A DNA stretch of 27,113 nt from Sumerlaeia bacterium (GCA_040219255.1 JAVJSW010000061.1:1-27113); one strand, 5' to 3'. Shown: positions 1,173 to 26,734, counted from the first letter of the stretch. Made by a program: numbers and translations. Notes: generated by a model from the letters alone, not told the origin.

Positions 1173-2645
<1,473 letters not shown>

Positions 2646-2750
2646 GACCGGGTATGGCGCATCGCATCGTGCGGCGGATAACGTGGCGGCTTCACTTGCC
2701 TAACACACGAACGTCGCACAGGAAACGTCGAACGTTGAACGGACAGACCT

Positions 2751-3035
2751 ATGGCTAACTTTCATCTCAACATCGTCTCCGCTTTGGAAACCGTTTTCAG
2801 CGGGGAAGCGACGGCACTGACGCTGCCGGGCGCGGAGGGCTACTTCGGCCTCCTGGCGCACCACGCTCCCATCGTGGCCGTGCTCGGCGAGGGAGAGGCG
2901 ACCCTGCGGGTGGGAACGAAGGAAACGACGTTCCACATCAAGGGCGGCTTCCTGGAAATGTCGAACAACGTCTGCACGCTCCTGCCCGAGGAAGTGCGCG
3001 GCCTGGATCACCTCAAGCCGGCGGCGGCCGAGTAG
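2751..3035 (+). CDS. atpC: ATP synthase F1 subunit epsilon, short form (N-terminal beta-sandwich only)
   Basis: LPGAEGYFGLLAHHAPIV and IKGGFLEMSNN motifs; follows atpD; 94 aa with no C-terminal helical hairpin. Confidence 0.92.
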   Translation: MANFHLNIVSALETVFSGEATALTLPGAEGYFGLLAHHAPIVAVLGEGEATLRVGTKETTFHIKGGFLEMSNNVCTLLPEEVRGLDHLKPAAAE

Positions 3036-3088
3036 GCGGCGCAGACGCTTTCACACTGGTCTCCTTTTACCTGGGCGAGAAGTCACCT

Positions 3089-3130
3089 GACCCCCCGACA
3101 CTGTTTGGTGTCGGGGGGTCGGCTGTTTAT
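3089..3130 (+). terminator. Probable intrinsic terminator of the atp operon
   Basis: Perfect 13-bp stem GACCCCCCGACAC / GTGTCGGGGGGTC (3089-3120) with a 6-nt loop, followed by a weak T tract (GGCTGTTTAT). Confidence 0.65.
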
Positions 3131-5051: not shown

Positions 5052-5765
5052 ATGAGACGCTCCGTTTTGAAATCTTTTGGTTTGGCGCTCTTGGCTCTGG
5101 CGGGAACCGCCTGCACCCTCGCCAAAGGCGTTGTCGGCAACCGTTCCGGCTATGAGGAGCCGGACTACATCGTGAAGGAAACGCTGCCGGGAGGAATCGC
5201 GATCCGGCACTACGCGGGGCGCGTGGTGGTGCAGACCACGGTGGAGCCCGGGGGAGAAGCCGAAGATGCGGACGAACCGCGCGACGAGGCTTTTCAGCGG
5301 CTCTTCGACTATATCTCCGGCGAGAATTCGGCGCGAGGCGAGATCGCGATGACTGTGCCGGTGGAAACCAAGAAGTCCTCGCAGAAGGTGGCCATGACGG
5401 TTCCCGTGGAAGTAAGGGGCGAGGACGCTGGGAGACCATCCGCCGAACCCCTGACGATGCGGTTTTTCCTGCCGTCGAAATACACCGCCGAAACAGCGCC
5501 CGCGCCAGCGGACCCGCGGGTCGAACTGGCGACGCTTCCGGCCGAGACCTACGCCGTCGCGCGGATCGAGGGCGGTGTGAACGAGGAGGACTTGGCGGCG
5601 GCCAAGAAGGCCGTTTCCCAGGCGGTGGCCTCCAGCCCGCTCTACCGGGCGGCGGGCGAGCCGGTGGTGTGGTATTACGATCCACCCTTCACCCTGCCGC
5701 CGCTGCGGCAGACGGATGTGGCCCTCGCCGTGGAGCGCATCCCGGCACCAACGCCCGCCCCATGA
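5052..5765 (+). CDS. SOUL family heme-binding protein, predicted lipoprotein
   Basis: EEPDY, IRHY, AFQRLFDYISGEN, IAMTVPV (twice), MRFFLPSKY and YYDPPFTLPPLR motifs; lipobox-like LAGTAC. Confidence 0.9.
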   Translation: MRRSVLKSFGLALLALAGTACTLAKGVVGNRSGYEEPDYIVKETLPGGIAIRHYAGRVVVQTTVEPGGEAEDADEPRDEAFQRLFDYISGENSARGEIAMTVPVETKKSSQKVAMTVPVEVRGEDAGRPSAEPLTMRFFLPSKYTAETAPAPADPRVELATLPAETYAVARIEGGVNEEDLAAAKKAVSQAVASSPLYRAAGEPVVWYYDPPFTLPPLRQTDVALAVERIPAPTPAP

Positions 5766-6028: not shown

Positions 6029-6374
6029 GGGACTTTTCCTTAATTGTGGGATTGGAAACTGGGGGCTGCGTGAGTCGGCTCCCAGGATGGCGCGTTGAGA
6101 AAAGCGTTCCAGCGCGGAGGCAAGATAAATCGGTGTTAATTTGTCTCGCTTATCCCGCACCCTGTGTCATAGGCGTTTCGCCGACTTAAGCCCAGGTTGA
6201 TAGATGGCCACCCTAAACTCTCGATTGTCATGGATTGGTCTCCGAACGGATGGAACGCGTCCGAGTTCTCTTTGAGCTTTCAAAGCCTTTCATGGTTGAC
6301 TTGATTAGGGTTGCCCTATGTCACAAGGTTGGGACAAAGTGCTTGTATGACAGGATGAAAGGAGGTTGCAGCAG

Positions 6375-7982
6375 ATGCATTTTGACCTCAGCCAATATGG
6401 AGTGACGGCGGAAAAGATTCACCGCAATCCGCCGGTGGGACGGTTGTACGAGTTGGGTTTGGAGGAAAAGGGCACGACGTTCTCGTCCACGGGGGCGATG
6501 ATCGCCTATTCGGGGGCGAAGACCGGCCGCAGCCCGGAGGACAAGCGGGTCGTTCGCGAGGCGGACAGCGAAGGCAATATTTGGTGGGGCAGTGTCAACC
6601 GCCCGATTTGCGAGAAGTCCTTCGCCTTCAATCGCGAAATCGCTCTGAATTTTCTAGCCTCGAGGCATCGAGTCTTCGTCATCGATGGATACGCCGGGTG
6701 GGACCCACGCTATCGAATCAAAGTCCGAGTGATCTGCTCGCGCGCCTACCACGCGCTGTTCATGCACAACATGCTGATCCGCCCCACGAAAGAGGAACTG
6801 GCCAATTTCGGCGAGCCCGATTGGGTGATCTACAACGCGGGCCAGATGGGGGCCTCGACCCAGGTCGAAAACGTGGACACGAAGACCAGCGTGGCGCTCT
6901 CCTTCAAGAACCGCGAGTTCGTCATTCTCGGCACCGAGTACGCCGGCGAAATGAAGAAGGGCGTCTTCACGGTGCTCAATTACATCCTGCCGCTGCAAGG
7001 CGTGCTGTCGATGCACTGCTCGGCGAACGAGGGCGGGGACGGCGACACAGCGCTCTTCTTCGGCCTCTCGGGCACGGGCAAGACGACGCTGTCGGCGGAT
7101 CCGAAGCGCGCCCTGATCGGTGACGATGAGCACGGATGGAGCGACCGGGGCATCTTCAATTTCGAAGGCGGTTGCTACGCCAAGACGATCAACCTGTCGC
7201 GCGAGGGCGAACCGCAAATCTACGACGCCATCAAGTTCGGCTCCATTCTGGAAAACGTCGTCTACGATCCCTTCAGCCACGACGTCGACTACACCGACAC
7301 GCGGTTCACGCAGAACACGCGCTGCTCCTATCCGGTGGAATTCATCGACAACGCCAAGATTCCGTGCGTCGGCGGCCACCCGAAGAACGTCATCTTCCTG
7401 ACCTGCGACGCCTTTGGCGTGCTGCCTCCGGTGGCGAAGCTGACGCCGGGCCAGGCCATGTACCATTTCATCAGCGGCTACACGGCCAAGGTGGCGGGCA
7501 CGGAAGTGGGCGTGACCGAACCCAAGGCCACCTTCTCGGCCTGCTTTGGCGCGGCCTTCCTGGTCTGGCACCCGGCGAAGTACGCGGAAATGCTGGCGGA
7601 GAAAATGCGCGCCCACGGCTCCACCGTCTGGCTCGTGAACACCGGCTGGAGCGGCGGACCGGCGGCCGACATGTTCGGCGTCAAGGCCAGCAAACGCATG
7701 AAGCTGGCCTACACCCGCTCCATCGTGGACGCCATCCTGAACGGCGAACTGGATCATGCGGAGTACCAGACCGACGAGGTTTTCGGCCTGGCGACTCCGA
7801 AGTCCCTGGCGGGCGTTCCGGATGAAATCCTCAATCCGCGGATGGCCTGGCCGGACAAGAACTCGTATGACCTGGCGGCTGGCAAGCTGGCCGAGATGTT
7901 CACCAAGAACTTCGAGAAGTACGCCAGCGAAGCGAGCGCCGAAATCCTGGAAGCGGCCCCGAAGATTCCCGCCGCCAGTTGA
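6375..7982 (+). CDS. pckA: Phosphoenolpyruvate carboxykinase (ATP)
   Basis: TGRSPEDK, YAGEMKKG, SMHCSAN, FFGLSGTGKTTLS, LIGDDEHGW and NFEGGCYAK motifs; AAGGAGG RBS spaced correctly for the ATG at 6375. Confidence 0.98.
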   Translation: MHFDLSQYGVTAEKIHRNPPVGRLYELGLEEKGTTFSSTGAMIAYSGAKTGRSPEDKRVVREADSEGNIWWGSVNRPICEKSFAFNREIALNFLASRHRVFVIDGYAGWDPRYRIKVRVICSRAYHALFMHNMLIRPTKEELANFGEPDWVIYNAGQMGASTQVENVDTKTSVALSFKNREFVILGTEYAGEMKKGVFTVLNYILPLQGVLSMHCSANEGGDGDTALFFGLSGTGKTTLSADPKRALIGDDEHGWSDRGIFNFEGGCYAKTINLSREGEPQIYDAIKFGSILENVVYDPFSHDVDYTDTRFTQNTRCSYPVEFIDNAKIPCVGGHPKNVIFLTCDAFGVLPPVAKLTPGQAMYHFISGYTAKVAGTEVGVTEPKATFSACFGAAFLVWHPAKYAEMLAEKMRAHGSTVWLVNTGWSGGPAADMFGVKASKRMKLAYTRSIVDAILNGELDHAEYQTDEVFGLATPKSLAGVPDEILNPRMAWPDKNSYDLAAGKLAEMFTKNFEKYASEASAEILEAAPKIPAAS

Positions 7983-8032
7983 CCCGTCAGCCTTGTGGCG
8001 TGTGGGACTTCTCGACGCGCTGACACAATGAC

Positions 8033-8084
8033 TCCCCGGCAGACCCCCCGCAGGACAGCGTGGACCTGCCGGGGATTCTTCTTT
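8033..8084 (+). terminator. Probable intrinsic terminator after pckA
   Basis: TCCCCGGCAG (8033-8042) pairs with CTGCCGGGGA (8066-8075), followed by TTCTTCTTT. Confidence 0.65.
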
Positions 8085-8238
8085 GTATGACTTCACCCCT
8101 GAAATTATGGCGCGCTTCGAAAAATCGAGGAACCCCTTGCGATTCCGGAGCATCCGGCTCAAAAGATGCTTTTGAGCAGAAGACAAATTCTTTTCGGCGG
8201 GCCATCACGCAACCTGAGCGCCAGCCCTCGAGCCACTT

Positions 8239-8730
8239 ATGAAGAACCTCAACCTCGTCCCCGGAAAAAACCGCATCCAGTGCGTCACGAACGCACCCCT
8301 GTCCGACTCCATGCTGGTCGAGCAGCTCAACCTGCCCATGGCGTGCGGAGGCAACGGTCTGTGTGCCACCTGTCACGTCGTGGTGACCGGCGGGATGGAC
8401 AATTTGTCCGAGCCCTCCTCGAAAGAGTTGCGCACGCTCAACCGGTTGACAGGGCGCTGCGAGGGCTCGCGCCTGGCTTGCCAGGCGCGGATTCTCGGCG
8501 ACGTGACAGTCCGCCTGCCGGAGGGCATTTACATCACCGGCACGGACGATCTGGAGAGCCTGATCGGCCGGCGGGCCGAAGCGGCCATCCTCCATCCCGC
8601 CGACGGCCGGGTCCTGGTCAACCAGGGCCAGATCATCAGCCGCTACATCATCCGCAAACTCGAAGGCATGAACTTCAACCCGTGGGATGTGGCGGCGGGC
8701 GAGGACGAAGGCGGCAAACAGGTGGTTTAG
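8239..8730 (+). CDS. 2Fe-2S ferredoxin with C-terminal extension (Slr0148/Fd5-like)
   Basis: CGGNGLCATCHV (C-x5-C-x2-C) and RLACQ fourth ligand; about 65 extra C-terminal residues (LIGRRAE..ILHPADGRVLV..GQIISR). Confidence 0.9.
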   Translation: MKNLNLVPGKNRIQCVTNAPLSDSMLVEQLNLPMACGGNGLCATCHVVVTGGMDNLSEPSSKELRTLNRLTGRCEGSRLACQARILGDVTVRLPEGIYITGTDDLESLIGRRAEAAILHPADGRVLVNQGQIISRYIIRKLEGMNFNPWDVAAGEDEGGKQVV

Positions 8731-8858
8731 CCCCTCTTCCTCCGCGGCGGGCTCCTCCCCGATTTCGCTTGTTCGCCCACCGACATTTTTCTTAGACTGC
8801 GTTTACCTCAAAGAGTCTCTATCGCACCGATGCATTGCACCCCCAGGATTGTTTGACC

Positions 8859-9527
8859 ATGTCCAAGATCTCCATCGAAGCCGGTGGCAGCCTCCATGGC
8901 ATCCGCCACAACTACTACGATCCGGAGGATTTCTTCCTCCGCGATGAGCGGACGGGGGAAATTCGCCGCCGCGACGGTCAACGCACGATCGCCATCTCCG
9001 AAGATTTCGTGGCCGCCTTGATGGCCGGCACGGCGGAGGAAGTGGGCGACGAAGCGGCCCGCGCCATCATGTACCAGGCCGGTTTCCAGTGGGCCCTGGC
9101 GGACATGAAGAATTTCAGCCGCAACATGGAGAAGGAATTCGGCAGCATCGGCCTCACCGAGATGCAGCTCAATTTCGTTCTCGAAACCTGGTGGTGGCCG
9201 CTCACCAGCCAAGGCTGGGGCGGCTGGAAGTTCGACTTCGCCCATCGTAAGCAGGGCCTGATTTTCGTCGACCTCTACGATTCCGTCGTGGCGCGCAGCC
9301 TCGAGCGACTCGGCAAGCCGGTCTGCTACTGGTACGCGGGGCTCTTTGGTGGCCTGTTCACCTTCATGAGCCGGCGCGATTTGTCCTCCATCGAAATCCA
9401 GTGCTACGCCAACGGCTACGACGTCTGCAAGTTCATGGTCGGCATGGAGAAGCGCGTCAACGCCGCCGCCTTCTGGGTCGAAGAAGGCGCCACGTCGAAA
9501 GAAATCATGAGCCAGTTGCTCGAATAA
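8859..9527 (+). CDS. V4R (4-vinyl reductase-like) domain protein 1
   Basis: LETWWWPLTSQGWG, DSVVARSL..GKPVC..YAG and IEIQCY..G...CKF motifs, as in the cyanobacterial Slr0144/Slr0147-type proteins; AGGA RBS before the ATG at 8859. Confidence 0.9.
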   Translation: MSKISIEAGGSLHGIRHNYYDPEDFFLRDERTGEIRRRDGQRTIAISEDFVAALMAGTAEEVGDEAARAIMYQAGFQWALADMKNFSRNMEKEFGSIGLTEMQLNFVLETWWWPLTSQGWGGWKFDFAHRKQGLIFVDLYDSVVARSLERLGKPVCYWYAGLFGGLFTFMSRRDLSSIEIQCYANGYDVCKFMVGMEKRVNAAAFWVEEGATSKEIMSQLLE

Positions 9528-9550
9528 CCGCCGCGCCAGGACCCTTCCAC

Positions 9551-9919
9551 ATGCCCATCCGCATTGCCATACCCGAAGCCTCAGCGATTCGGCGCCTCGC
9601 GGCGTCGCTTGCGACCTCCGCGGCGGCCAAGACGCCTTCCTCGGGCGGCGGGCTGGACTTGAACCAGAACGTGCGCAACTACTTCTTCTACTTTCCCTGG
9701 ACCGGCAAGCCGGTGGTGACCGGTGAGCGTATGCCGACGCTGGAGGAGGCGACGGTGGGACAGTATTTCTCAGCGTTCGACTGGGAAGGGCGCCGCAGCG
9801 GACCGCCCCCGGACGCTCCGCCCCCCGCCGGAATCTCCGCCGCCCAACCGGCCAAGGCCACAGGGTCTCCGCAAGAGAAAGGCTTCGACCGATTTTTCTC
9901 CAACTTTTTCCAAGATTGA
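9551..9919 (+). CDS. Hypothetical protein with two V-x-x-Y-F-x-x-F-x-W-x-G repeats
   Basis: ATG at 9551 after the V4R1 stop; repeats NVRNYFFYFPWTG and TVGQYFSAFDWEG; C-terminus GFDRFFSNFFQD; fills the operon gap exactly. Confidence 0.75.
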   Translation: MPIRIAIPEASAIRRLAASLATSAAAKTPSSGGGLDLNQNVRNYFFYFPWTGKPVVTGERMPTLEEATVGQYFSAFDWEGRRSGPPPDAPPPAGISAAQPAKATGSPQEKGFDRFFSNFFQD

Positions 9920-9939
9920 CCGCCGACGGAGCGTAGCCC

Positions 9940-10437
9940 ATGTCGCATCCCCTTTTGCAGCAAATCTCGAAGGCCGAACCGGGCCGTTACCTGACCGAGC
10001 AGGAAGTCTATCGCATCGCCAGCGAAGACGAGTTCATGAAGCCCCGCCTGCAAGCCGCAAAGGCCGCCCAGGAAAAGGAGCAGGTCATCGTGCAGGCCGC
10101 CATCAAGGCGACCTTCAAGAAGTTCGACTTCAGTGTGCACGACTACTACGAAGGCAAATGCTACCGCGATGTGGCCATGGTCTATCGCTACTGCGTTTTC
10201 TCCATGCTGTGCAACGACACGTCTCTTTTGGAGAACAAGCTTCTCTATTGGATGCGGACGATCATCCAGGCGTTCGAATTCCCGGGACGCAACGACTCGA
10301 TCAGGTTGACCTACGCGGGAATGCGCCGCGAGGCCTGGAACCACCTGAGCCAGGAGCACGCGCGGCTTCTCGATCCCTATCTGGAACTGGCCGAAAACGT
10401 GCTGCCCGCCACCGGCGAACGCCACAATCGCGAGTGA
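9940..10437 (+). CDS. Phycobiliprotein-like globin (bilin biosynthesis-associated globin, BBAG-type)
   Basis: GRYLTEQE N-terminal motif; KCYRDVAMVYRYCVFSMLCND..LLE..LYW aligns by eye with phycobiliprotein ACxRDxxxYLRYxxYAxxxGD; 165 aa, helical. Confidence 0.85.
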   Translation: MSHPLLQQISKAEPGRYLTEQEVYRIASEDEFMKPRLQAAKAAQEKEQVIVQAAIKATFKKFDFSVHDYYEGKCYRDVAMVYRYCVFSMLCNDTSLLENKLLYWMRTIIQAFEFPGRNDSIRLTYAGMRREAWNHLSQEHARLLDPYLELAENVLPATGERHNRE

Positions 10438-10480
10438 TCCCACCTTCCCCTCGCCTCTCTCCCCAAAGGTTCCCTTTTCC

Positions 10481-11173
10481 ATGACGAGCACCGACGGACA
10501 TAGCAATGGCAACGGCCGGGAATATCTTCCCCCCGTCGCGTTCTACGAGAACGACTACCTGCGCCACGACCTGCGGGGCGGCACGCTGTTCAATCGCAGC
10601 GGCACCAAGATGTGCTATATGCCCAGCGAACTGCTGATCGGTTTGCAGCGCACGCTGGAGGATGAAACGGGCCCGGCGTGGCGGTTGATCCTCAAGCGTG
10701 TGGGCCAGATCTGGGGCCGGCGGGTGGCGCGCCGCTTCCGCCAGGAAATGCAGGAATTCTACGGCCGGCCGCTCTTCGATCTTCCCATGCGGGAATTCAC
10801 CACGCTCCTCGAAGCCTATTTCCGCTACCATGGCTGGGGGCTGCTGACGCTCGATTTTACCCATGCGAACTCGGGGCTGATCGCCGCCAAGCTGGAGAAC
10901 AGCGCCTTTGTCGAGGTGATCGGGAACTCTGACGTGCCCATCGACTCGATCGTTTCGGGACTGCTGGCGGAACTCGTTTCCGAGGTGGCGGAACGCGACG
11001 ACATCGAGTGCTTCGAGACCGAGTGCTCGGCCATGGGCGCGCCCTGCTGCCGGTTCATCCTGGGAATCAAGGGCCGCATCGGCAAAGTCCCCGACTGGGT
11101 CGAGGAAGGCCTGAGCCATGAAGAGGTGCTCGAGCGCCTCAATTCTCCGGTGGAGGACTCGGCGACGGCATGA
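10481..11173 (+). CDS. V4R domain protein 2
   Basis: GTLFNRSGTKM, GQIWGRR, HGWGLLTLDF, LENSAF and CFETECSAMGAPCCRF motifs. Confidence 0.9.
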   Translation: MTSTDGHSNGNGREYLPPVAFYENDYLRHDLRGGTLFNRSGTKMCYMPSELLIGLQRTLEDETGPAWRLILKRVGQIWGRRVARRFRQEMQEFYGRPLFDLPMREFTTLLEAYFRYHGWGLLTLDFTHANSGLIAAKLENSAFVEVIGNSDVPIDSIVSGLLAELVSEVAERDDIECFETECSAMGAPCCRFILGIKGRIGKVPDWVEEGLSHEEVLERLNSPVEDSATA

Positions 11174-12102
11174 TGACCGCGGCGGATCCTTCGGTGGAGG
11201 CGTGGCTTCCGAGTCAGTACCACGACCCGGCACTGGTCGGTGGCGGTGGACAGGCGGACGTCTGGCGCGCACGCGCCCGTTCGGGTCCCTCGCCCGTGGC
11301 GATCAAGCGCTACAAGAAGAACACGCCCCGGGGCGTGTTCTACCGGGAACTGGCGATGCTGGCGGAGGTGCGAAGCCCCCATGTGGTGGAGGTCTACGAC
11401 CTGCTCGATTCGCCCGCTGGCGATTTGCTGCTGGTGATGGAGTACTGCGCCGGGGGCAACCTGCGCGACGCGCTCGAATCCGACGCCTCTCCCACCTACG
11501 GCGAAGCCTTGCGGTTGGCTTCGCAGGTGGCCCTCGGCCTTCACGACATCCACGGCAGGGGCTTGATCCACGGCGACATCAAACCCGAGAACCTCTTCCG
11601 CCTGAAGCGGACGGGGCCACCGGAATGGAAAATCGCCGATTTCGGCGTCAGCGAGTTCGCCCACGCCCGGGGCAACGGCTGCCGCTTCTACACACCGGCC
11701 TACGCGGCGCCCGAGCAGAAGGACCAGCGCATCTTCCAATCCTCTGACATCTACGCCTGGGCGGTGGTGCTGGCCGAGTGCCTGCTGGGGCGATTGCCCT
11801 GGGAGGAACCGGAACCGCTGATGGAAAACCAGCGCCCGCCGGCCTTCGACTCCCTGGAGGGTTTGCCTCCGGACTTACGCGATTTGCTCTTCCGGTGCCT
11901 GGAGGAAAGGCCCTCCCTACGCCCCGACGCTTTAGCTTGTCAGAAGACTTGCGCGCGCTGTTATTCTTTCTGGAAAGCCAGCGCCTACTGCCAGAACGAT
12001 CTCTCCCAAGTTTTTGGCGAATCATTGTTTGTGGATCGAGGTTCAGCAGATGTCATTGCCCTGGAAACGGAAGAAGGATGGAAACCCTCGGAAGAAAAGT
12101 GA
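11170..12102 (+). CDS. Hanks-type Ser/Thr protein kinase, soluble
   Basis: GGGGQADV loop, VAIK, LVMEYC, HGDIKPEN, DFG, TPAYAAPE and SDIYAW motifs; ATGA overlap with V4R2; no TM segment seen. Confidence 0.95.
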   Translation: MMTAADPSVEAWLPSQYHDPALVGGGGQADVWRARARSGPSPVAIKRYKKNTPRGVFYRELAMLAEVRSPHVVEVYDLLDSPAGDLLLVMEYCAGGNLRDALESDASPTYGEALRLASQVALGLHDIHGRGLIHGDIKPENLFRLKRTGPPEWKIADFGVSEFAHARGNGCRFYTPAYAAPEQKDQRIFQSSDIYAWAVVLAECLLGRLPWEEPEPLMENQRPPAFDSLEGLPPDLRDLLFRCLEERPSLRPDALACQKTCARCYSFWKASAYCQNDLSQVFGESLFVDRGSADVIALETEEGWKPSEEK

Positions 12103-12436
12103 GGAAGACTCGGAAACGCCAGGAACGAGCAGAGAGCTTTTTCGGGAGTTCGACGAAGCCATCGACGAGCAGGGCGGCTCGAGCCTGGTGCGGGAACTGG
12201 AAGAAGCCTTCGGCGAGAAGAAGCAGTTCGATACACAAGAGGTCATCGACGAGCTGCGCCGCAAAGTCGCCAGGAAAAGCCCCGGCTACTTCGACCAATC
12301 GACGGTGGAATGGAAGCCGCGTCCGCGCGACGGGGAACCGGCAAACAGCCCGGACGAGGAAGACAGCAATCCGCGCCGGCCGAAAACCGCCGCCGATTTT
12401 CTCGACGATTTCGCCTCGGACGACGGGGCCCGGTAA
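12050..12436 (+). CDS. Acidic, largely disordered hypothetical protein A
   Basis: GAGG RBS then ATG at 12050 (MSLPWKRKK...); E/D-rich with host-like codon usage; sits in operon position. Confidence 0.7.
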   Translation: MSLPWKRKKDGNPRKKSEEDSETPGTSRELFREFDEAIDEQGGSSLVRELEEAFGEKKQFDTQEVIDELRRKVARKSPGYFDQSTVEWKPRPRDGEPANSPDEEDSNPRRPKTAADFLDDFASDDGAR

Positions 12437-12487
12437 GCCCTCCGCCGATCGGCGAGGGCCAACATTGATTGAAACGGACGGATCGAT

Positions 12488-12958
12488 ATGGCGTTCTGGA
12501 AACGATTTCTCGGCGAAGCGAAACCCGCTTCCCAATCCCGGACGGAAGCCCAGGGCCGCACCGGCAACGCCGCCGATGTCTTCGGCGAGTTCCTCGACGG
12601 TGCCGAATCGAAAGAGCCCATCGCCGCCGAACCCGCGGCGCCGGGCAAGAAGCGCCGCGACACCCACGCCATACCCATTCGCGCCGGGGCGAAGCTGGAA
12701 GCCGATCCGCCTCCCGGCCCCGAACTGCGCCCCCACGCTTCGGTTCCAAAACCCCCGGCCAAACGGGAAGAGCGCAAACCCGCGCCTTTCCGCGTTCGCT
12801 CCGGGCCGCTGGTGCCGTCCGGCCGAATGGATGACGAAGTGACCACTCGGCAGGTCGTCATGCCCGATAGGTCTCAGGAAGAAACGGAGCAGGAACTCCC
12901 GCCGAAGCAGAACAAGAAAGCCGACGATGTCTTCGGCGATTTCGGATGGGATAATTGA
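12488..12958 (+). CDS. Pro/charged disordered hypothetical protein B
   Basis: MAFWKRFLG start; internal repeats AADVFGEF and ADDVFGDF; stop 3 nt before the next ATG. Confidence 0.75.
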   Translation: MAFWKRFLGEAKPASQSRTEAQGRTGNAADVFGEFLDGAESKEPIAAEPAAPGKKRRDTHAIPIRAGAKLEADPPPGPELRPHASVPKPPAKREERKPAPFRVRSGPLVPSGRMDDEVTTRQVVMPDRSQEETEQELPPKQNKKADDVFGDFGWDN

Positions 12959-12961
12959 TCG

Positions 12962-13720
12962 ATGAAAACGATCCTGATCGCCAGCGCCACCGGCGGCAGC
13001 GCCAAGACCACCACCGCCGTGCGGCTGGCGGAATCCCTGAAACGCGCCCGCGTCCCCGCCGGCGTCATGGATTTGTCACCCTATCCGACGGCCAATTATC
13101 TGGTTCGGGAAAAGGACGTCTTCGCCCTCAATGGGCGCGGAGCCGCCACCTCTGTCGCCGTCGATGCGATGCTGCGGCCTCTCGAAGACCGGTGTCGCGC
13201 CCTGGTCATCGATACGGGACGGCTCGACGATCCGATGCTCGATTTCTGGATCGAGTTCTGTGACGCCATGATCCTGACAACCCGGGTGGACGCCTTCGCG
13301 CTCAAGGCCTTCGAGGGCATCTGGGACAGCCTGGAGCAGCGCCGCAAAGACAACCCGGAGATGAAATTCCTGGGGTTCCTACCCGTCGTCGTGGGCCCCG
13401 AGGAGAAAAAAAACGTCCGCCAGTTGCAGCTTGCCGCGTCCCGATTCGTCCTTGAAACCGCCGTTCCCTTCGACCAGCAGGAAATCCTGAGGGCCCAGTC
13501 GACCTGCATCGAAGGGCTGGACCCTTTGCCGGCCGATTACGGCGAGGCCTCCCGCGAAGCTTACGACGCCTTGGCGGCCCATACGATCGGACAGCTCGGG
13601 ATCGAACAGTTGCCGCAAACCGAGCCGGAACGGAAAAAGGAAGTGGGACTCTTCACAAAGCTCTGGCGCGTCGCCTCCAAATCGGTGCGGCCCAAAGTCA
13701 GCACCCAGGGAGGATACTGA
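12962..13720 (+). CDS. ParA/MinD-family ATPase-like protein 1 (degenerate Walker A)
   Basis: MKTILIASATGGSAKTTTA, VMDLSP, LVIDTG and FLGFLPV motifs; C-terminal GLFTKLWRVA amphipathic segment. Confidence 0.8.
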   Translation: MKTILIASATGGSAKTTTAVRLAESLKRARVPAGVMDLSPYPTANYLVREKDVFALNGRGAATSVAVDAMLRPLEDRCRALVIDTGRLDDPMLDFWIEFCDAMILTTRVDAFALKAFEGIWDSLEQRRKDNPEMKFLGFLPVVVGPEEKKNVRQLQLAASRFVLETAVPFDQQEILRAQSTCIEGLDPLPADYGEASREAYDALAAHTIGQLGIEQLPQTEPERKKEVGLFTKLWRVASKSVRPKVSTQGGY

Positions 13721-13721
13721 A

Positions 13722-14483
13722 ATGGAAGCTGCCGATATTCCCGTCGTTCTCGTTCTCAGCCATCGCGGCGGCTCGGGCAAGACGGCCCTGGCGGCGGGAA
13801 TCGCCTCCGATTGGGCCGACCTGGGCGAGAAGCCGTTGCTGGTCGATTGCGCCGCCGCCGGGGGAGCGTCCGCTCTCTTTGGCCGCTATCTCCCCGCCGA
13901 TTTCGTTTTTCCGGTTTGGCGAGGCGAGGAGAAACCTTTCCCGATGGTTCAGGAAGGCGGGATGAGCATGCGCTTCCTGAAGGCCGGCCCGGCGCTGAAG
14001 GACCCGCAGGCCGCCGAGCGCCTGCGCGAGGGGGCGGCGAAGGCCCGCTGCACCTCCGTCGTGGTGGATTTGCCCGCCTGCGGCCGGTCCGAACTCGAAC
14101 CTTTGCTGCGCGTCGCCACGCTGGTGCTGCTGGTGATGCCGGTGGACGCGCTCGCGTTCCGCGGCAGCCGGCCGTTTCTGGAAATGATTCAGGAGGAACG
14201 CGCCCGCCCCGGCCGCGACTTCCAGAGCGTGGTGGTGGTCAATGGCACCGGCGTGAAGAATCCGGCGAAGGAGCACACTGAGGTGTTCCTGCGCCAGTAC
14301 CTCGGCCCGATCCTGGCCCCGGTGGAAATCCCGCACGATCCGTCTCTGAAGGCCGGAATGGCCAAGGGCATTCTGCCCGGATCGGAGGCCGAGCGGTCAC
14401 CGGCCAGCGACGCCATCTTGAGGCTGGCCAAGCACCTGCGGCAAATGCTGGCCCAGCACGGGACCGCCGGAGCGATGGCGTGA
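13722..14483 (+). CDS. ParA/MinD-family ATPase 2
   Basis: VLSHRGGSGKTALA, LLVDC, VVVDLPA, VVVNG, IPHD and SPASDAILRLA motifs; GGAGGA RBS. Confidence 0.88.
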   Translation: MEAADIPVVLVLSHRGGSGKTALAAGIASDWADLGEKPLLVDCAAAGGASALFGRYLPADFVFPVWRGEEKPFPMVQEGGMSMRFLKAGPALKDPQAAERLREGAAKARCTSVVVDLPACGRSELEPLLRVATLVLLVMPVDALAFRGSRPFLEMIQEERARPGRDFQSVVVVNGTGVKNPAKEHTEVFLRQYLGPILAPVEIPHDPSLKAGMAKGILPGSEAERSPASDAILRLAKHLRQMLAQHGTAGAMA

Positions 14484-15199
14484 CTTCCAAATCTATCCAA
14501 GACCTGACGGAACGCGGCGTTCTCAGCACGCTGTGGGAAGAAACCTGCGCGGCGCTGGAGGGACTCTTTCCCATGAGAGAAACGCCCATCCCGCGAGAAT
14601 TCGCCCTGCGCCTGCCCCTTAACCCAAAGAGCGACAGCGTTTTGACCTTCAACGACAGAGCGGTCGAGGGCGTCGGCGATTTGCGGGCCACGCTGATCGC
14701 CGGGTCACGGGCCGAGATCGTCAACGTCATGCTCTTTCCCGCCGACGTGCAACGCCATCCGGTGTTCGCGTCCGAAATCGTGGTCTTCGCCAAGGCCCTT
14801 CGGGTGGGGGTGATCGACCTGCAACCGCTGGTGCGGACCCAGGAGCAGGAGGGGCTGATCGAGGGAGACCTGGCCGCTCTGCGAAGCCGGTTTGGCGACC
14901 TGTCCGATGGCGGGGAACTGCCGGACTGGGCGCGCGAACACTTCACCCCCGCCTGCGTTCACGTGCGCGAGCCGGGCCTGGAGTCCCTGCCCCGCCTGCG
15001 CGAAGCCTATCTCGCCTATCTTCGGCTTTTCATCCAATACGTCCGGAACAATCCCGGAACGCCCGCCGCAACGGAAGATCCCGCCCTGCGCCACTACAAA
15101 GACCACCACATCGCCAACACGCCGGGATGGCCCTTCCTCTCGCGGCTTTATGGAGAAGACTGGACGCGGCGCTTCCTGCGCGAAGGCATGTACGCCTGA
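14480..15199 (+). CDS. Ferredoxin-dependent bilin reductase family protein (PcyA/PebA/PebB/RCCR superfamily)
   Basis: IVNVMLFP...PVFASEIV, VIDLQPL, LPDWAREHFTP, AYLAYL and PG..FLSRLYGEDWTRRFL motifs; GTGA overlap with ParA2. Confidence 0.85.
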   Translation: MTSKSIQDLTERGVLSTLWEETCAALEGLFPMRETPIPREFALRLPLNPKSDSVLTFNDRAVEGVGDLRATLIAGSRAEIVNVMLFPADVQRHPVFASEIVVFAKALRVGVIDLQPLVRTQEQEGLIEGDLAALRSRFGDLSDGGELPDWAREHFTPACVHVREPGLESLPRLREAYLAYLRLFIQYVRNNPGTPAATEDPALRHYKDHHIANTPGWPFLSRLYGEDWTRRFLREGMYA

Positions 15200-15203
15200 C
15201 GGC

Positions 15204-16052
15204 CTACAATCGCACGTCGAGCGCGTCGCGCAACCCATCGCCCAGCAGATTGATCCCCAGCACCGCCAGCGCAATCATCAGGCCCGGGAACAGGACGATG
15301 TGGGGCGCCTGCAGGTAGGCGTCCTTGCCGTCCGCCAGCATCCGCCCCCACTCCGGGTCCGGAGGCTGGGCGCCAAGGCCGAGGAAACTGAGCGCCGACG
15401 TGTAGAGAATCGCCGTGCCTAGGCTGAGCGTGCTGATCACCAGCAGCGGCGCCAGGCAGTTCGGCAGAACGTGGTTCTTCAGAATCCGCACATGCCCCGC
15501 CCCCAACGTCCGCGCCGAATGGACATAGTCGAGGCCGCCCTGCTGCAGCGAGGACGCCCGCACGATGCGCGCGAACTTCGGGACGAAGGCGATGCCCACG
15601 GCGATCATGGCGTTCGAGAGGCTCGGCCCCAGCGCCGCGATCACCGCCAACGCCAGCAGGTAATCCGGCAGCGCCAGCATCACGTCCGCCACGCGCATGA
15701 TGCTCGCATCCACCCAGCCGCCGAAATAGCCGCTGACCAGACCGAACCCGCCGCCGAACACGATGCCGATCGCCACCGTCAGGATGCCTGCCCCAAGAGT
15801 CAGGTGCGCTCCATAGAGAATACGCGAAAGAATATCGCGCCCCAACGCGTCGCGCCCCATCCAGGCCTGAGCGCTCGGAGTCTCGCGGATCGCCGACGCG
15901 TCCGTCACCTGCTCCTTGTAATCCTCGGGCGCCAACGCGGGCCCCGCCACCGCCAGGAACAGCATGAAGACCACGATCGCCAGACCGGCCAGCGCCGTGT
16001 GGGATCGCTTCATCCGCCGCCAGACGAAACTGACCAGGGTATCGGTTTGCAT
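15204..16052 (-). CDS. Peptide/nickel ABC transporter permease (DppC/OppC type)
   Basis: WMGRDALGRDILSRILYGA, EAA-like loop DYVHSARTLGAG, HVLPN and LSFLGLGAQPPDPEWG motifs; start set at the ATG at 16052 (MQTDTLVSFVWRR). Confidence 0.93.
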   Translation of the reverse strand: MQTDTLVSFVWRRMKRSHTALAGLAIVVFMLFLAVAGPALAPEDYKEQVTDASAIRETPSAQAWMGRDALGRDILSRILYGAHLTLGAGILTVAIGIVFGGGFGLVSGYFGGWVDASIMRVADVMLALPDYLLALAVIAALGPSLSNAMIAVGIAFVPKFARIVRASSLQQGGLDYVHSARTLGAGHVRILKNHVLPNCLAPLLVISTLSLGTAILYTSALSFLGLGAQPPDPEWGRMLADGKDAYLQAPHIVLFPGLMIALAVLGINLLGDGLRDALDVRL

Positions 16053-16345: not shown

Positions 16346-17221
16346 CTACAGCCGAATCCCCAGCGCCTTGGCCTCTTCCTTCAGCCCCAGAATCCCCGGC
16401 CGGGTCAGGGCGAAATCGTAGCGGCATGGGTCGGCCGGCGAGATGGCGGCGAAGGCGTCCGTGATCGCCAGCGCCGTCGAGAGCGTCGGCGCCCGCAGGT
16501 CCGCCAACCCCAGCGCCCGCGTGACCTGCATCACGTGCGTATCCACCGGCATGACGAGGCGCGCCGGATCCACCGGCCACAGGCCCAGATCGACGCCGTC
16601 GTCCGGCCGGCAGACCCATCGCAGGAACAGGTTCATCCGCTTGCAGGTGCTTTTTTTCTCCGGCGCCGTCAGCAGCAGCCGCGCCCCCGATGGCAGCGCC
16701 GACACCGAGCCGCCGGCCCGCTTCAGCCACCGCTCGCGCTCCGCCACGCCGTCGACGGGCGCGGCGGTGATGGCTTCGACAAAGCGCTGCATCGTGGGCA
16801 GAACGGTGGGATCCGCCGGGGCGTCCAGCGACTGCCAGAGCGCCCCGAGGCTCCCCTGGTCCCGCAAGACGCGGCCGATCCAACTCAGGTAAATCCAGAG
16901 GTCTTCCTCGCGCACCCAGCGATAGGTGAAGGCGGGGAATCGCCGTGTCCAGTGGCGCGGCTCGGTTTCGGCCAGAGCCGCCGCCGGCTGCGGGCCCAGT
17001 TCGCCGAGGATGGCTTCGAGGGCCGACGCGATGGACTTCACGTTGCCGAAGGCGAAGGACGCCGCCATCAGCGCCACCACCTCGCGGTCGGCGTGGGAAG
17101 GGTAGCGGTGGGCGAAAGCCAGCGGGTCCCGGGGCAGGAACTCGGGGCGGTGATAGGCGTGGTAAAGGTATTCGAGAAGCTCGCGCAACCGGTCGCGCGA
17201 GAGCCGGCGGCGCGGACTCAC
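16346..17221 (-). CDS. TIGR02757/DUF2400 family protein (HhH-GPD-like)
   Basis: DPLAFAHRY, DREVVAL..ASFAFGNV, STCKRMNLFLRWVCR, VDLGLW, PVDTHV and DPCRYDFAL motifs; GTG at 17221 overlaps the upstream stop (GTGA). Confidence 0.9.
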   Translation of the reverse strand: MSPRRRLSRDRLRELLEYLYHAYHRPEFLPRDPLAFAHRYPSHADREVVALMAASFAFGNVKSIASALEAILGELGPQPAAALAETEPRHWTRRFPAFTYRWVREEDLWIYLSWIGRVLRDQGSLGALWQSLDAPADPTVLPTMQRFVEAITAAPVDGVAERERWLKRAGGSVSALPSGARLLLTAPEKKSTCKRMNLFLRWVCRPDDGVDLGLWPVDPARLVMPVDTHVMQVTRALGLADLRAPTLSTALAITDAFAAISPADPCRYDFALTRPGILGLKEEAKALGIRL

Positions 17222-19407
17222 GGAAGCATCGAGTTCATCGGGCGCCGCTCGCAATCGTCCAGGTAGGCCGTGAAATGCTTTGTCAAGTCCGGGTCGAAGC
17301 ACTTGCCGGCTTCGGAGCGGAGGACGTCGAGGGCTTGCCGGCCAGTCATGGGGGTCGAGTAGGGGCGCGAAGTCGTCATGGCGTCGTAGCTGTCGGCGAT
17401 CTTGATCAGGCGGGCGCCGATGGGAATGTCCACGCCCTTGAGCAAGCCCGGGTAGGCGGGGAAGCGGCACGAGGTTTCCCCGTCCCAGCGCTCATGATGG
17501 GCGGCCAACAGCAGGGCCACCTCGCCGATGTAGGGAACTTCCTTGAGGATGTCCTGTCCGGCCTGGGGGTGGGTCTGGACGAGTTCGTACTCGCGGGGCG
17601 AGAGGGGGCCGGTGCGCGACAGAATCTGCGTGGGGATGGAAATCTTGCCCACGTCGTGCAGCAGCGCCGCCAGGGCAACCGCTTCGATTTCCGCCTGCGA
17701 CCACTTGGCCCGCTGGGCGATGGAAACGCACAGGTTCATCACGCGCAGCGCGTGGGCGTGGTAGTAGGGTTCTTTTTCATAGAGGACGCGCAGGATCTTG
17801 CTGAGCGAATGGTTCCAGCGGCTCAGGTCTTCCGGGCGGGTCGAGATCAGTTTGCGCAGCAGATCGCGCCGCGCCTGCTCTTCCTTGTGGGCGTAGAGGG
17901 CTTTGTCGGCGCTGTCGAGAAGGTGCTGGGCCGAGGCCCCCTGGGCCGAGCGCAGTCCGCAGGAGAGGCTGTAAGCCCAGTGCTCGCGGTTGAGCGTCTT
18001 GGCCTTTTCCCGGGCGGTTTGCAGGATGCGCTCGCGCAGCACTTCCGCCTGTTCGGCGCTTGTGTTCGGCATCAGGACCACGAATTCGTCGCCGCCGTAG
18101 CGGGCCACGAGATCGGTTTCCCGGGCCGCGATGCGCAACACGTCGGCGGTCGCCACGATGGCTTCGTCGCCAGCGATGTGCGAGTAGGTATCGTTGAGCT
18201 TCTTGAACCGGTCGATGTCGATCATCAGGATGCTGAGCGGCAAATCGTAGCGCACCGCGCGCGCCACTTCGCGCTGCAGCGCCACGTCGAACCCGCGGCG
18301 GTTCACCAGGCCTGTCATACCGTCCTGCTCGGCCAGACGCCGCGCCCGCGCCAGCAGGTGGGCACCCTCGATAGCCGAGGCCACCGTGTTGGCATAAAGT
18401 TGCAGACCGACGAGCCGCTGTGGCGAGACCTGGCAGCGGTTCGCGTCGTGGTCGGCGAAGAGCACGCCGATGGGCCGGCCCGCCATCAGCAGCGGCAGCG
18501 ACAGCGCGTGGTAGCGGAGCCCTTTCGAGGCCTTGGGGAAAAGGGTGGATCCCTCCACCTCGGGCAACCAATTGGCCGTGCCATCGCGATAGGTCCGAAC
18601 CAGAAGGTTGTCGCTCGAGTCGATATCCATGGAAATACTGCGCAGGATCGTCGGGTCGAATCCCATGCCGCCGACAGCCTTGAGGCAGTTGGTTTTATCG
18701 ATGTAGCTCAGGATCAGGCATCGGGTGGCGTTGAGGCGCTCGACCATGATTTCGCCCGCCAGTTCGGGGCAGCTTTGTTCCTGATCGGTGCTTTGCAACA
18801 GGGTGGCCGACTCGAGGATGTCTTGCAGATCGTTGCGCTCGCGGCGCATGCGCTCGTACTCGTGGCATCCGGGCAGCGCTTCCTCCGCCGCGGCCAGCAG
18901 CGGCGTCAGCGCCGGCAGGGCGGTCTCCAGGGCGGGCAAATCATCCTTCGACACCGCGAAGGCCATGTAGCCGCAGACATCGCGATGCGAGCGCAGGGGC
19001 AGCATCAGGGTGCAGACCGGGCCGGTGGGCGGGGGGGACTGAGCGCTGGAAGTTTCGCCCGCGCCAAGACGCTTGGCGATCGTGCCTTCGACGCCGTAGA
19101 GGGCGGGAGCCTGGAGGGAGAAGCCGCCTTGCTCGTCGCTCGGGCCCTCCGCCTCCGCCGGATAGGGACGCCCGCCAGTGAGGATTCCGTTGCGCAGCCG
19201 CAGACTGATGCGAACCGAGGAGTCTTCCGGATGAGCCAGCGTCATGCGGGCTTCGCGGATTTGAACGGCCGCCACACGCTCCACGGCGCTGCCGAATCGC
19301 TCCAACAGGGACGAGTAATCCAGCGCCCCGAAGAGAGACTCTCTCAGGGGTGGGATCAGGTCATCCGGTGTCTCTTTGGAACGCGGAAGCACGGTCGAAA
19401 AGGCCAT
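17218..19407 (-). CDS. GAF + GGDEF + HD-GYP cyclic di-GMP turnover protein
   Basis: GAF (LSLPLLMAGRPIGVLFAD); DGMTGLVNRR, DIDRFKKLND and RETDLVARYGGDEF; HDVGK, HHERWDG, AYP and IADSYDAMTTSRPY. Confidence 0.95.
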   Translation of the reverse strand: MAFSTVLPRSKETPDDLIPPLRESLFGALDYSSLLERFGSAVERVAAVQIREARMTLAHPEDSSVRISLRLRNGILTGGRPYPAEAEGPSDEQGGFSLQAPALYGVEGTIAKRLGAGETSSAQSPPPTGPVCTLMLPLRSHRDVCGYMAFAVSKDDLPALETALPALTPLLAAAEEALPGCHEYERMRRERNDLQDILESATLLQSTDQEQSCPELAGEIMVERLNATRCLILSYIDKTNCLKAVGGMGFDPTILRSISMDIDSSDNLLVRTYRDGTANWLPEVEGSTLFPKASKGLRYHALSLPLLMAGRPIGVLFADHDANRCQVSPQRLVGLQLYANTVASAIEGAHLLARARRLAEQDGMTGLVNRRGFDVALQREVARAVRYDLPLSILMIDIDRFKKLNDTYSHIAGDEAIVATADVLRIAARETDLVARYGGDEFVVLMPNTSAEQAEVLRERILQTAREKAKTLNREHWAYSLSCGLRSAQGASAQHLLDSADKALYAHKEEQARRDLLRKLISTRPEDLSRWNHSLSKILRVLYEKEPYYHAHALRVMNLCVSIAQRAKWSQAEIEAVALAALLHDVGKISIPTQILSRTGPLSPREYELVQTHPQAGQDILKEVPYIGEVALLLAAHHERWDGETSCRFPAYPGLLKGVDIPIGARLIKIADSYDAMTTSRPYSTPMTGRQALDVLRSEAGKCFDPDLTKHFTAYLDDCERRPMNSMLP

Positions 19408-25200: not shown

Positions 25201-25203
25201 AGC

Positions 25204-26154: not shown

Positions 26155-26208
26155 GCTCGTATCCCAGTGATATAGATCTCGCCACGCAAGTCGCCCACCC
26201 CCCCCCCT

Positions 26209-26525
26209 CTAATACTCCACCCGAAACGTCGGGCTCTCCTCCACCCTCTCCCCGCGCCGGTCATACATTTTCGTAGTCGAGATGTCCGCGTGGCCCAGCC
26301 ACGCCTGCACCCGGGCGATGTCGGCGCCGTGGTCGAGGGCGTTCGTGGCCGCCGTGGCCCTCAGGGCGTGGGGGCCGATGCCTGAGGCGGCGATGCCCGC
26401 TTCCCGGCAACAACGCCCGACGATTTCGCGATGCACGCTCCCCGGATCGAGCCCCCGTGCTAAGCCGCCCGGCGCCGCATTGTTGACCACGGGCCGGAAC
26501 AGCGCCCCGCCCGTGTCCTCGCCCC
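26209..26525 (-). pseudogene. C-terminal fragment of a tyrosine recombinase/integrase
   Basis: GALFRPV, PHALRATAATNAL, QAWLGHADISTTKMYD and ESPTFRVEY*; the N-terminal domain and first catalytic Arg box are absent. Confidence 0.85.
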
Positions 26526-26734
26526 CAATCAGCGTCTCTCCGCGTCCATCTCGCGGTTCCAAACTCCTCCCTCTCCTCGACTTATCCGCCCCTAAGCTCC
26601 TCAACTCCCTTTAGTCTGATAAGTGTATTTTGTCTTTCTTGTCCCCGAAGCTCCACATGAGGGGACAAACGAACAAGCCTGTGAAACCCTTCCTCCATCA
26701 CGCCTGACCCACAGGAACCACCCGCCATGAAACG

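Follow-up and report, generated by a model that had tools for sequence, protein, structure and literature searches.

Does a run of bilin genes in an apparently non-photosynthetic bacterium form a single unit, and what are a kinase and two ParA-like proteins doing among them? The question is raised by positions 8239-15199 of a Sumerlaeota contig of 27,113 nt (the window: the entire contig, C61, and the whole stretch of DNA that was analyzed). The contig belongs to a metagenome-assembled genome (MAG) of 5.35 Mb in 83 contigs, with 92% completeness and 3.3% contamination. A first-pass annotation, made from the sequence, had described an eleven-gene cluster for bilin synthesis, binding and signaling, consisting of a ferredoxin, two V4R proteins, a 'W-repeat' protein, a phycobiliprotein-like globin, a kinase, two disordered proteins, two ParA/MinD proteins and a bilin reductase. 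We found that the block is a discrete, conserved operon-like unit, and that an extension made of the kinase, a disordered protein and the ParA-like pair lies inside it, between the second V4R gene (V4R-B) and the reductase gene. Judged by gene content, the remaining core (Fe-S protein, two V4R proteins, globin and reductase) is the published pre-PcyA/BBAG cluster (main text of PMC10151467).

A conserved gene block in the window's order

All eleven open reading frames (ORFs) were recovered on the plus strand, co-oriented, and the GC3 frame plot agrees with the reading frame of each (Table 1). The close junctions described in the first-pass annotation are likewise as given: the kinase gene starts at 11170, overlapping the end of V4R-B at 11173 (ATGA); the reductase gene starts with the GTG at 14480, overlapping the end of ParA2 at 14483 (GTGA); and gaps of only 3 nt (12958/12962) and 1 nt (13720/13722) precede ParA1 and ParA2, respectively. 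Pfam searches bore out every domain call, with the CbiA/ParA-type matches of the two ATPases scoring 24.8 and 25.0 bits, just below the curated cut-off of 25.4. Three of the eleven ORFs (g03, g07 and g08) match no Pfam family.

The eleven window proteins were then compared by tblastn with the regions around reductase matches, with loci from a scan for the first V4R protein (V4R-A) and with two metagenome contigs. A reductase match is present in 9 of 75 Sumerlaeota species genomes, a count that includes one genome (G039) with a weak match in a different ORF without the cluster genes; all nine are among the 25 genomes of the window's order, and none is among the 50 genomes outside it. The common order is Fer2, V4R-A, g03, BBAG, V4R-B, kinase, one disordered ORF, ParA1, ParA2 and reductase. 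Six loci hold the complete block, namely the window, L018/L024, L019/L027 (where g03 lies upstream of Fer2), L021/L028, L022/L030 and L035, and seven more that are cut by contig ends (L016, L017, L020, L025, L026, L029 and L036) are collinear as far as they reach. Apart from the shifted g03 in L019/L027, no Sumerlaeota cluster locus breaks the gene order. Protein identities in these relatives range from 65-72% for V4R-A down to 29-39% for ParA2, ParA1 and the kinase. No flank gene is common to distinct genomes, and neither pckA nor the permease that borders the block in the window recurs. Since the order recurs while the flanks differ, the block is a discrete conserved unit rather than a chance arrangement. 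The kinase and ParA half, which the first-pass annotation had joined to the core, is collinear with it in the related Sumerlaeota loci that reach that far.

Outside the phylum the arrangement is different. A scan of genome contigs with two very specific V4R-A peptide patterns, which did not pick up the clusters published for Opitutales, Methylovulum and cyanobacteria, returned 11 loci, four of them in MAGs of Polyangiaceae, Deltaproteobacteria and Bradymonadales. Two of these four, L032 and L033, reach far enough for a comparison: Fer2 and V4R-A are followed by a small ORF, which in L033 is related to g03, next come BBAG and V4R-B, and after these a long kinase. Neither locus has a ParA-like gene or a reductase within 10 kb. 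Three of the four extra-phylum genomes carry a reductase elsewhere, one of the three on the cluster contig, upstream of Fer2 and on the opposite strand. Among the loci compared, the ParA pair is found in Sumerlaeota only. A metagenome scan for ParA1 gave no usable conserved stretch with seven sequences; with four sequences it gave two loci, both of them this cluster. In the Bradymonadales locus L034 (G078, contig C207) the reductase gene (2599-3129, minus strand) lies about 1.7 kb upstream of Fer2 on the opposite strand, a layout unlike that of Sumerlaeota.

The host looks non-phototrophic, as had been proposed: Photo_RC, PsaA/PsaB, nitrogenase/DPOR-like Oxidored_nitro and the phytochrome PHY domain were not found in its genome, and at the completeness stated above a true absence of phototrophy genes is likely. 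A rhodopsin search of the genome also gave no match, but control genomes were equally silent and this search is uninformative.

Table 1. Genes of the bilin block and other features of the window
Feature	Coordinates	Strand	Length	Match or remark
g01, [2Fe-2S] ferredoxin	8239..8730	+	163 aa	Fer2 E 1.5e-8, residues 11-85
g02, V4R protein A	8835..9527	+	230 aa	V4R E 8.5e-15
g03, small protein	9551..9919 (open from 9401)	+	about 122 aa	no Pfam family
g04, BBAG-type phycobiliprotein-like globin	9940..10437	+	165 aa	Phycobilisome E 3.7e-18
g05, V4R protein B	10481..11173	+	230 aa	V4R E 1.5e-8
g06, Hanks-type Ser/Thr kinase	11170..12102	+	310 aa	Pkinase E 3.1e-37
g07, acidic disordered protein	12050..12436 (TTG 12014 or ATG 12050)	+	about 128-140 aa	no Pfam family
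g08, conserved disordered protein	12488..12958	+	156 aa	no Pfam family
g09, ParA1	12962..13720	+	252 aa	CbiA E 2.3e-5; ParA/MinD fold
g10, ParA2	13722..14483	+	253 aa	CbiA E 2e-5; ParA/MinD-like
g11, bilin reductase	14480..15199	+	239 aa	Fe_bilin_red E 1.4e-23; pre-PcyA (pre-1-like) type
pckA	6366-7982			PEPCK_ATP E 1.6e-217; upstream of block
OppC-type permease	stop at 15204			convergent, downstream of block
SOUL heme-binding protein	5052-5765	+		PF04832 E 1.4e-35
GAF-GGDEF-HD-GYP protein	17218-19407	-	729 aa	weak GAF, GGDEF and HD-GYP-type HD (c-di-GMP turnover)
ORF pair and recombinase fragment	24268-26604		310 aa, then 316 aa	no family for either ORF; GC of the 316-aa ORF about 43.5%

Predicted bilin synthesis and the core proteins

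Next, we examined what the reductase is likely to make. The only ferredoxin-dependent bilin reductase (FDBR) found in the genome is g11, whose solved relatives are PebA (2x9o, E 2.6e-9) and PcyA (E 1.8e-5). In the alignment to Synechocystis PcyA, His88 corresponds to Asn82 of g11 and Asp105 to Glu99, and a Glu stands at the Asp105 position in all eight Sumerlaeota orthologues. According to the main text of Frascogna et al., 2026, pre-1 reductases replace PcyA Asp105 by Glu and His88 by Thr or Asn, and they lack a conserved equivalent of Glu76; aligned in this way, g11 carries the pre-1 signature. The same text reports that Pre-1 reduces biliverdin to 3E-phytochromobilin by two electrons, and pre-1 activity is known only for MCC5789364 and, in weak form, for POZ53557. 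Because the characterized pre-1 enzymes make 3E-phytochromobilin, g11 is expected by analogy to carry out this two-electron reduction rather than to form phycocyanobilin. The gene identities behind the earlier proposal, in which the reductase makes a phycobilin with the help of the ferredoxin, hold, and it is the expected product that changes. A word-index search with the reductase returned four proteins, the window's own included.

A further reductase-like gene was noted in G039. A 478-aa open frame on contig C239 (L023/L015) matches the reductase weakly (29% identity, E 9e-9) and has no cluster gene near it; a different FDBR-like lineage within the same Sumerlaeota family is a possible explanation.

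The first gene of the block encodes an Fdx/adrenodoxin-type ferredoxin whose C-terminus is extended by about 70 aa. Its best solved relative is the E. coli-type ferredoxin 1i7h (E 6.9e-9), with which the cluster-binding Cys residues align. The protein is 47-53% identical across Sumerlaeota loci, and its gene comes first in all of them save L019/L027, where the g03 homologue precedes it. The genome has one heme oxygenase, on contig C64 and thus outside the cluster; in the relatives, too, heme oxygenase is encoded on contigs other than that of the cluster.

Cys74 of the globin g04 lies in a C-Y-R-D motif and, in the alignment with CpcA (8iml_A), falls on the Cys of KCARD to which bilin is attached; this alignment together with the Phycobilisome match places g04 in the BBAG-1/3 type with CXRD. 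Of 14 globins aligned, 12 have retained this Cys, and the two without it are that of L032 and an orphan paralogue on contig C1 of the host genome. This paralogue (110430-110933, minus strand; L004 1471-1971) is a second, distant globin (Phycobilisome E 2.5e-13) with no V4R, Fe-S or reductase neighbors and with a DUF308 membrane protein gene adjoining. At the other extreme, one relative (G038, locus L020, 7667-9191) has three extra BBAG paralogues right after the reductase gene, all with K-C-x-R-D, which brings the cluster to four BBAGs.

The V4R protein A (g02) is the most conserved product of the block in Sumerlaeota, and it is still 48-52% identical to its counterparts in the Polyangiaceae, Deltaproteobacteria and Bradymonadales loci. 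V4R-B (g05) shows 52-60% identity in Sumerlaeota loci and 32-38% in L032/L033. The two clustered genes are the only V4R genes found in the genome. They are old paralogues, since g02 and g05 are only about 26% identical to each other and each is 52-72% identical to its own orthologues.

Between V4R-A and the globin lies g03, the 'W-repeat' protein of the first-pass annotation. The ORF and its Trp motifs were upheld, and the start was moved: the frame is open from 9401 and is backed by GC3 from about 9540, and translation most likely begins at 9551, because conservation begins there. The protein has an N-terminal helix (IPEAxAIRRLAASLA) followed by two motifs, F-P-W-x-G and F-x-W-E-G. Homologues occupy the equivalent position in six Sumerlaeota loci and in the Bradymonadales locus L033, and one lies upstream of Fer2 in L019. 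Look-alikes of g03 in a protein atlas, with scores of 0.88-0.90, are unnamed clusters of the atlas, for the most part cyanobacterial, which we take as a lead only.

In domain content, these genes correspond to what is described for heterotrophs in the main text of PMC10151467, where pre-1 and pre-3 reductases cluster with an Fe-S protein, two V4R proteins (there assigned to clades A and B), one or two BBAGs and often a heme oxygenase. The first-pass annotation had recognized this core, and the Fe-S protein, the two V4R proteins, the CXRD globin and the pre-PcyA-type reductase were all found.

Kinase, disordered proteins, ParA-like pair and flanking genes

The kinase g06 is soluble, a bare catalytic domain with a short tail. 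K46, E60, H134-x-D136-x-K138..N141, D157-F-G159 and P181-E182 are invariant in all seven aligned cluster kinases, each of which has the full set of Hanks features (VAIK Lys, alpha-C Glu, HxDxKxxN, DFG and APE). On these residues, the catalytic core looks intact and active. A kinase gene follows V4R-B in all eight Sumerlaeota loci that reach that far and also in L032 and L033, where the kinases are longer (579-830 residues). A kinase likewise ends the comparable operon of Synechocystis: slr0152 is SpkG, whose loss abolishes phosphorylation of ferredoxin 5 (Fd5), as stated in the accessible part of PMC11863333.

Both ORFs that had been annotated as disordered proteins exist, and only g08 is conserved. 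A g08-type ORF, single and 95-131 residues long, lies between the kinase and ParA1 genes in all seven relatives examined. Members of this family consist to 66-75% of P/E/S/K/Q/G/R/D/A residues. In g08 a hydrophobic and basic N-terminus is followed by D-[VL]-[FM]-G-[DE]-F, an I-A-P-R-like motif and a C-terminal G-W-D..F-G, and the protein could serve the ParA pair as partner or adaptor. The additional ORF of the window, g07, has no counterpart in the relatives, where the interval holds one ORF; it lies in the same frame as g08, is 28% identical to it and has the ELF-x-EF and acidic DF-rich C-terminal motifs in common. It is peculiar to the window and is probably a g08 duplicate that has diverged.

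We then turned to the two ParA-like proteins. The best profile matches of ParA1 are Soj, ParA and MinD, and those of ParA2 are Soj (8e-13), FleN and MinD. An AF2 model of ParA1 (pLDDT 81.8) has Soj 2bek (TM 0.68), ParA, FlhG and MinD as its best fold matches. ParA2 lies between ParA1 and the reductase in every locus that reaches it. An exhaustive HMMER search outlined a tight ParA1 family: its 26 representatives score at least 178 bits, the next protein 122 bits and the rest 93 bits or less. Two organisms were named among 20 family members looked up, both Candidatus Sumerlaeia, and the family seems confined to that group. The 122-bit protein (P0075, 1164 aa), which is from Planctomycetota by one member's name, has three tandem ParA/CbiA-type domains and is the closest ParA1 relative outside the family. 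It was considered as a ParA1-ParA2 fusion, and the comparison was uninformative since its first domain matched both profiles equally.

Upon inspection of the nucleotide-binding motifs, both proteins proved to be degenerate. ParA and MinD proteins have the deviant Walker A consensus K-G-G-x-G-K-[ST], with a signature Lys. The window's ParA1 has TGGSAKTT and its ParA2 has RGGSGKT, the signature Lys being replaced; the canonical KGGxGK[ST] occurs in two of seven ParA1 and in none of seven ParA2 proteins. The P-loop Lys itself is an Arg in two of the seven ParA1 sequences, and the Gly before it is replaced by Leu, Trp or Met in four of the seven ParA2 sequences. No Asp was found at the catalytic position (Soj Asp44/McdA Asp38) in any of the 14 proteins, with Ser or Ala in ParA1 (Ser in the window) and Ala, Thr or Ser in ParA2 (Ala in the window). 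The ParA2 profile scores higher against the Soj chain 2bek, which has an Ala at this position, than against the wild type 1wcv, which has the Asp; the position at which the two chains differ is one that we take to be Soj Asp44, whose mutation blocks hydrolysis. The titles of fold-match entries, 'McdA(D38A)-ATP' and 'Soj mutant D41A', agree with this role of Asp44.

In the ParA1 model, a detached C-terminal helix (residues 230-241) follows a low-confidence linker and has the highest hydrophobic moment of the protein (0.85), which makes it like the membrane-targeting helix of MinD. Given the degenerate Walker A motif and the missing catalytic Asp, the ParA proteins look like scaffolds or tethers, not motors. 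The ParA/MinD fold named in the first-pass annotation thus stands, and the positioning function attached to it is weakened. A complex prediction for ParA1, ParA2 and the disordered protein scored 0.00; controls were not run, and it informs neither way. Two further identities for the pair were rejected: a NifH/BchL-like electron donor is disfavored by the absence of a conserved Cys, and a CobB/CobQ-like tetrapyrrole amidase does not fit as there is no amidotransferase domain, the structures titled 'cobyrinic acid a,c-diamide synthase' being ParA-like and ranking below Soj and MinD.

As for the surroundings of the block, a terminator scan of the plus strand from 7800 to 15600 gave no terminator-like site, neither 3' of pckA nor inside the block, and the terminator that the first-pass annotation had placed after pckA is therefore unconfirmed. 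The sole hairpin visible in the sequence there is a 9-bp AT-rich one at 8157-8177. Sampled words of the sequence were found in three DNA metagenome runs from one study, at most one third of them, and no RNA run was among those listed. The gene for a SOUL heme-binding protein lies 2.5 kb upstream of the block, with pckA in between, and is absent from the flanks of the block in other Sumerlaeota loci. About 2 kb downstream is a gene for a GAF-GGDEF-HD-GYP protein, which was considered as a bilin photoreceptor and set aside: the GAF match is weak, a motif for bilin binding is not evident, and the gene does not recur in the flanks of other loci. Near the contig end, two ORFs without family, the second of low GC, are followed by a tyrosine recombinase fragment on the opposite strand (Phage_integrase E 2.3e-11), and a small islet, mobile or acquired, may be present at 24268-26604.

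Proposed mechanism, alternatives and known systems

The block could work as follows. The unlinked heme oxygenase would open heme to biliverdin, and the reductase, fed by the 2Fe-2S ferredoxin of the cluster, would reduce biliverdin by two electrons to a phytochromobilin-type bilin, which would attach to the globin at Cys74. A bilin-protein complex would be completed by the two V4R proteins and g03, and its state would signal light and/or redox and oxygen conditions. The kinase may phosphorylate a component of the cluster, most likely the ferredoxin, as SpkG apparently does to Fd5, and could so gate the electron supply or the output; we infer a light or redox relay through the V4R proteins and the kinase. 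ParA1 and ParA2 would form a heterodimer that is nucleotide-bound, poorly hydrolyzing and held at the membrane by the ParA1 amphipathic helix, with g08 linking it to the bilin-protein complex. Since such a heterodimer would hydrolyze poorly and be held at the membrane, it would act as a static tether or scaffold rather than as a moving positioning motor.

We hold with slightly better than even confidence that the locus is one conserved operon-like block, a pre-PcyA/BBAG cluster with a three-part extension, that acts in this way. The more specific idea is that, in this non-phototroph, BBAG, the V4R proteins and the ferredoxin are assembled under the control of phosphorylation and tethered to the membrane by a diverged ParA1/ParA2 heterodimer deficient in hydrolysis and its disordered adaptor; it is tentative, and we regard it as doubtful. 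Several observations weigh against the proposed mechanism. Co-transcription of the block is inferred from gene spacing alone. The His88 position of the reductase varies among the eight orthologues (Asn in three, Ala in three and Ser in two), and the first pre-1 enzyme assayed was barely active (Frascogna et al., 2026; main text). Heme oxygenase is present in 24 of 75 genomes, including 16 of the 66 without a reductase, and so is spread far more widely than the cluster, while none was found in the reductase-positive genome G041, which is 87% complete. The main text of PMC10151467 describes BBAGs as poor fluorophores with unknown functions. Nucleotide binding by the ParA proteins is itself uncertain, given how much their P-loops vary, and the amphipathic C-terminal signal of ParA1 is clear in three of seven sequences as extracted and weaker elsewhere, some of the alignment pieces being truncated. 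Lastly, g06 is not the best match, among about 40 kinase genes of the genome, of the kinases in the deltaproteobacterial-type clusters, and a common origin of the kinases is therefore unsupported. An alternative to common descent is that a kinase was recruited repeatedly, which would likewise indicate a functional link.

The membrane-tethered scaffold has a counterpart in which the same genes form a dynamic positioning system of the McdA/McdB or ParA/ParB kind, powered by ATP, that spaces or segregates a BBAG body along the nucleoid or the membrane. Both proteins have the ParA/MinD fold, and the disordered protein is encoded directly upstream, as with McdB-type partners; in the accessible part of PMC10241942, ParA/MinD genes usually adjoin the genes of their cargo, and partners bind via a disordered N-terminus. 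The three extra BBAG paralogues in one relative also hint at multi-subunit assemblies. However, the known systems work with a single ATPase that forms homodimers and not with a pair of diverged paralogues. Here, the catalytic Asp is present in 0/7 ParA1 and 0/7 ParA2 proteins and a canonical Walker A motif in 2/7 and 0/7, respectively, and we judge a motor of this kind unlikely. Highly unlikely, in our estimate, is that the P-loop pair are maturation or insertion factors, relatives of Mrp/NBP35, CooC, HypB and Get3, that load an Fe-S cluster, a metal or a tetrapyrrole into the ferredoxin, a V4R protein or the reductase. Their genes do adjoin the reductase gene and are translationally coupled with it, and the proteins belong to the same SIMIBI class, with weak N-terminal matches to an NUBPL/Mrp model and to CFD1/HypB-type structures. 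Yet they have no invariant Cys and hence no CxxC or bridging-cluster ligand, their best sequence and fold matches are Soj, ParA, FleN and MinD rather than metallochaperones, and degenerate P-loops would be unexpected in NTP-driven chaperones.

The signal sensed by the complex might have nothing to do with light. The system could instead respond to heme, oxygen or redox state, with bilin formation reporting O2, heme and reduced ferredoxin, or countering oxidative stress, and with the kinase as the output. This would suit a host in which no phototrophy genes and no phytochrome PHY domain were found, the established dependence of heme oxygenase on O2 and of the reductase on reduced ferredoxin (also argued in the main text of PMC10151467) and the poor fluorescence and unassigned function of BBAGs noted in the same text, and a SOUL heme-binding protein is encoded nearby. 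That gene is, however, not conserved beside the cluster in relatives, biliproteins with a covalent Cys linkage are best known as light absorbers, and the present data fit light sensing and redox sensing alike; we consider a system without any light sensor improbable. To the notion that the kinase and ParA half is an unrelated neighbor traveling with the core in one lineage we give almost no credence. The ParA pair is indeed absent from the deltaproteobacterial-type clusters, and the ParA1 family seems confined to Sumerlaeia (two of two organisms named among those looked up). Against this, the extension sits between the core genes V4R-B and reductase, not beside the core, start/stop overlaps join it to both sides, and in three families of the taxonomic order the gene arrangement persists at protein identities of 29-39%, with changing flanks.

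The role of the BBAG/V4R/Fe-S cluster matters for how phycocyanobilin synthesis and phycobiliproteins arose, and this lineage offers one block with a complete candidate pathway and an active-looking kinase. Sumerlaeota, deltaproteobacterial-type MAGs and Synechocystis are distant from one another, and in all three a kinase recurs next to the core; should the link between kinase and ferredoxin extend beyond cyanobacteria, the interpretation of the Synechocystis operon in terms of 'photosystem assembly' would need rethinking. The two pseudo-ATPase-like ParA proteins and the disordered adaptor, in turn, suggest where and with what the complex assembles. If the membrane-tethered assembly is real, it would show biliproteins organized into a complex without photosynthesis, would give the ParA/MinD family its first cargo of this kind, and could reveal a role of bilin-binding globins before phycobilisomes.

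Judged against the main texts of the key papers, Sumerlaeota joins the hosts of pre-PcyA clusters. Neither Rockwell et al., 2023 nor Frascogna et al., 2026 names the phylum in its main text, and their supplements may list Sumerlaeota sequences. ParA, MinD and ATPase are likewise absent from both main texts, with 'kinase' appearing solely in a reference on SpkG, and the supplements may show gene neighbors. No literature linking Sumerlae* with bilin was found, and none on BBAG with ParA, MinD or kinase was among the matches listed. The extension of kinase, disordered protein and double ParA, and the Sumerlaeota host, appear undescribed in the accessible literature.

Among known systems, the ParA-like pair recalls McdA/McdB, MinD/MinE and Soj/Spo0J in its fold, in the disordered protein encoded upstream and in the position of the genes beside a candidate cargo, and recalls MinD/FlhG in the C-terminal amphipathic helix of ParA1. 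It differs from these positioning systems in having two diverged paralogues instead of one homodimer, a degenerate Walker A motif and no catalytic Asp. BcsQ of cellulose secretion is also comparable, as a small MinD-like assembly or scaffold component: BcsRQ structures are among the fold matches, and several ParA1 homologues are automatically named BcsQ by one source. The model matches to BcsQ are, however, weak and N-terminal only, and no cellulose synthesis genes lie nearby.

The block as a whole resembles the slr0144-slr0152 ('pap') operon of Synechocystis sp. PCC 6803, which in the accessible text has V4R proteins, the 2Fe-2S protein Fd5, a BBAG-type globin and, last, the kinase SpkG. This likeness, SpkG included, had been pointed out in the first-pass annotation; it is real at the level of the domain set, on which it rests, and kinase orthology is unsupported. 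By contrast with the window, the Synechocystis operon belongs to a phototroph, its reductase is unlinked, it encodes the TPR protein slr0151 (Pfam found no TPR protein in the window block) and it has no ParA-like genes. Rockwell, Martin & Lagarias 2023 relate the heterotroph clusters to slr0144-slr0149 and set slr0150-slr0152 aside, as evidence of conservation was lacking (PMC10151467; main text). Closest of all is their pre-PcyA/BBAG cluster, which, in that main text, shares with ours the Fe-S protein, the two V4R proteins, the CXRD globin, the pre-PcyA-type reductase and a non-photosynthetic host. Here, heme oxygenase is encoded outside the cluster, its presence inside being treated as optional there, and the reductase gene is set apart from V4R-B by the genes for a kinase, a disordered protein and the two ParA-like proteins.

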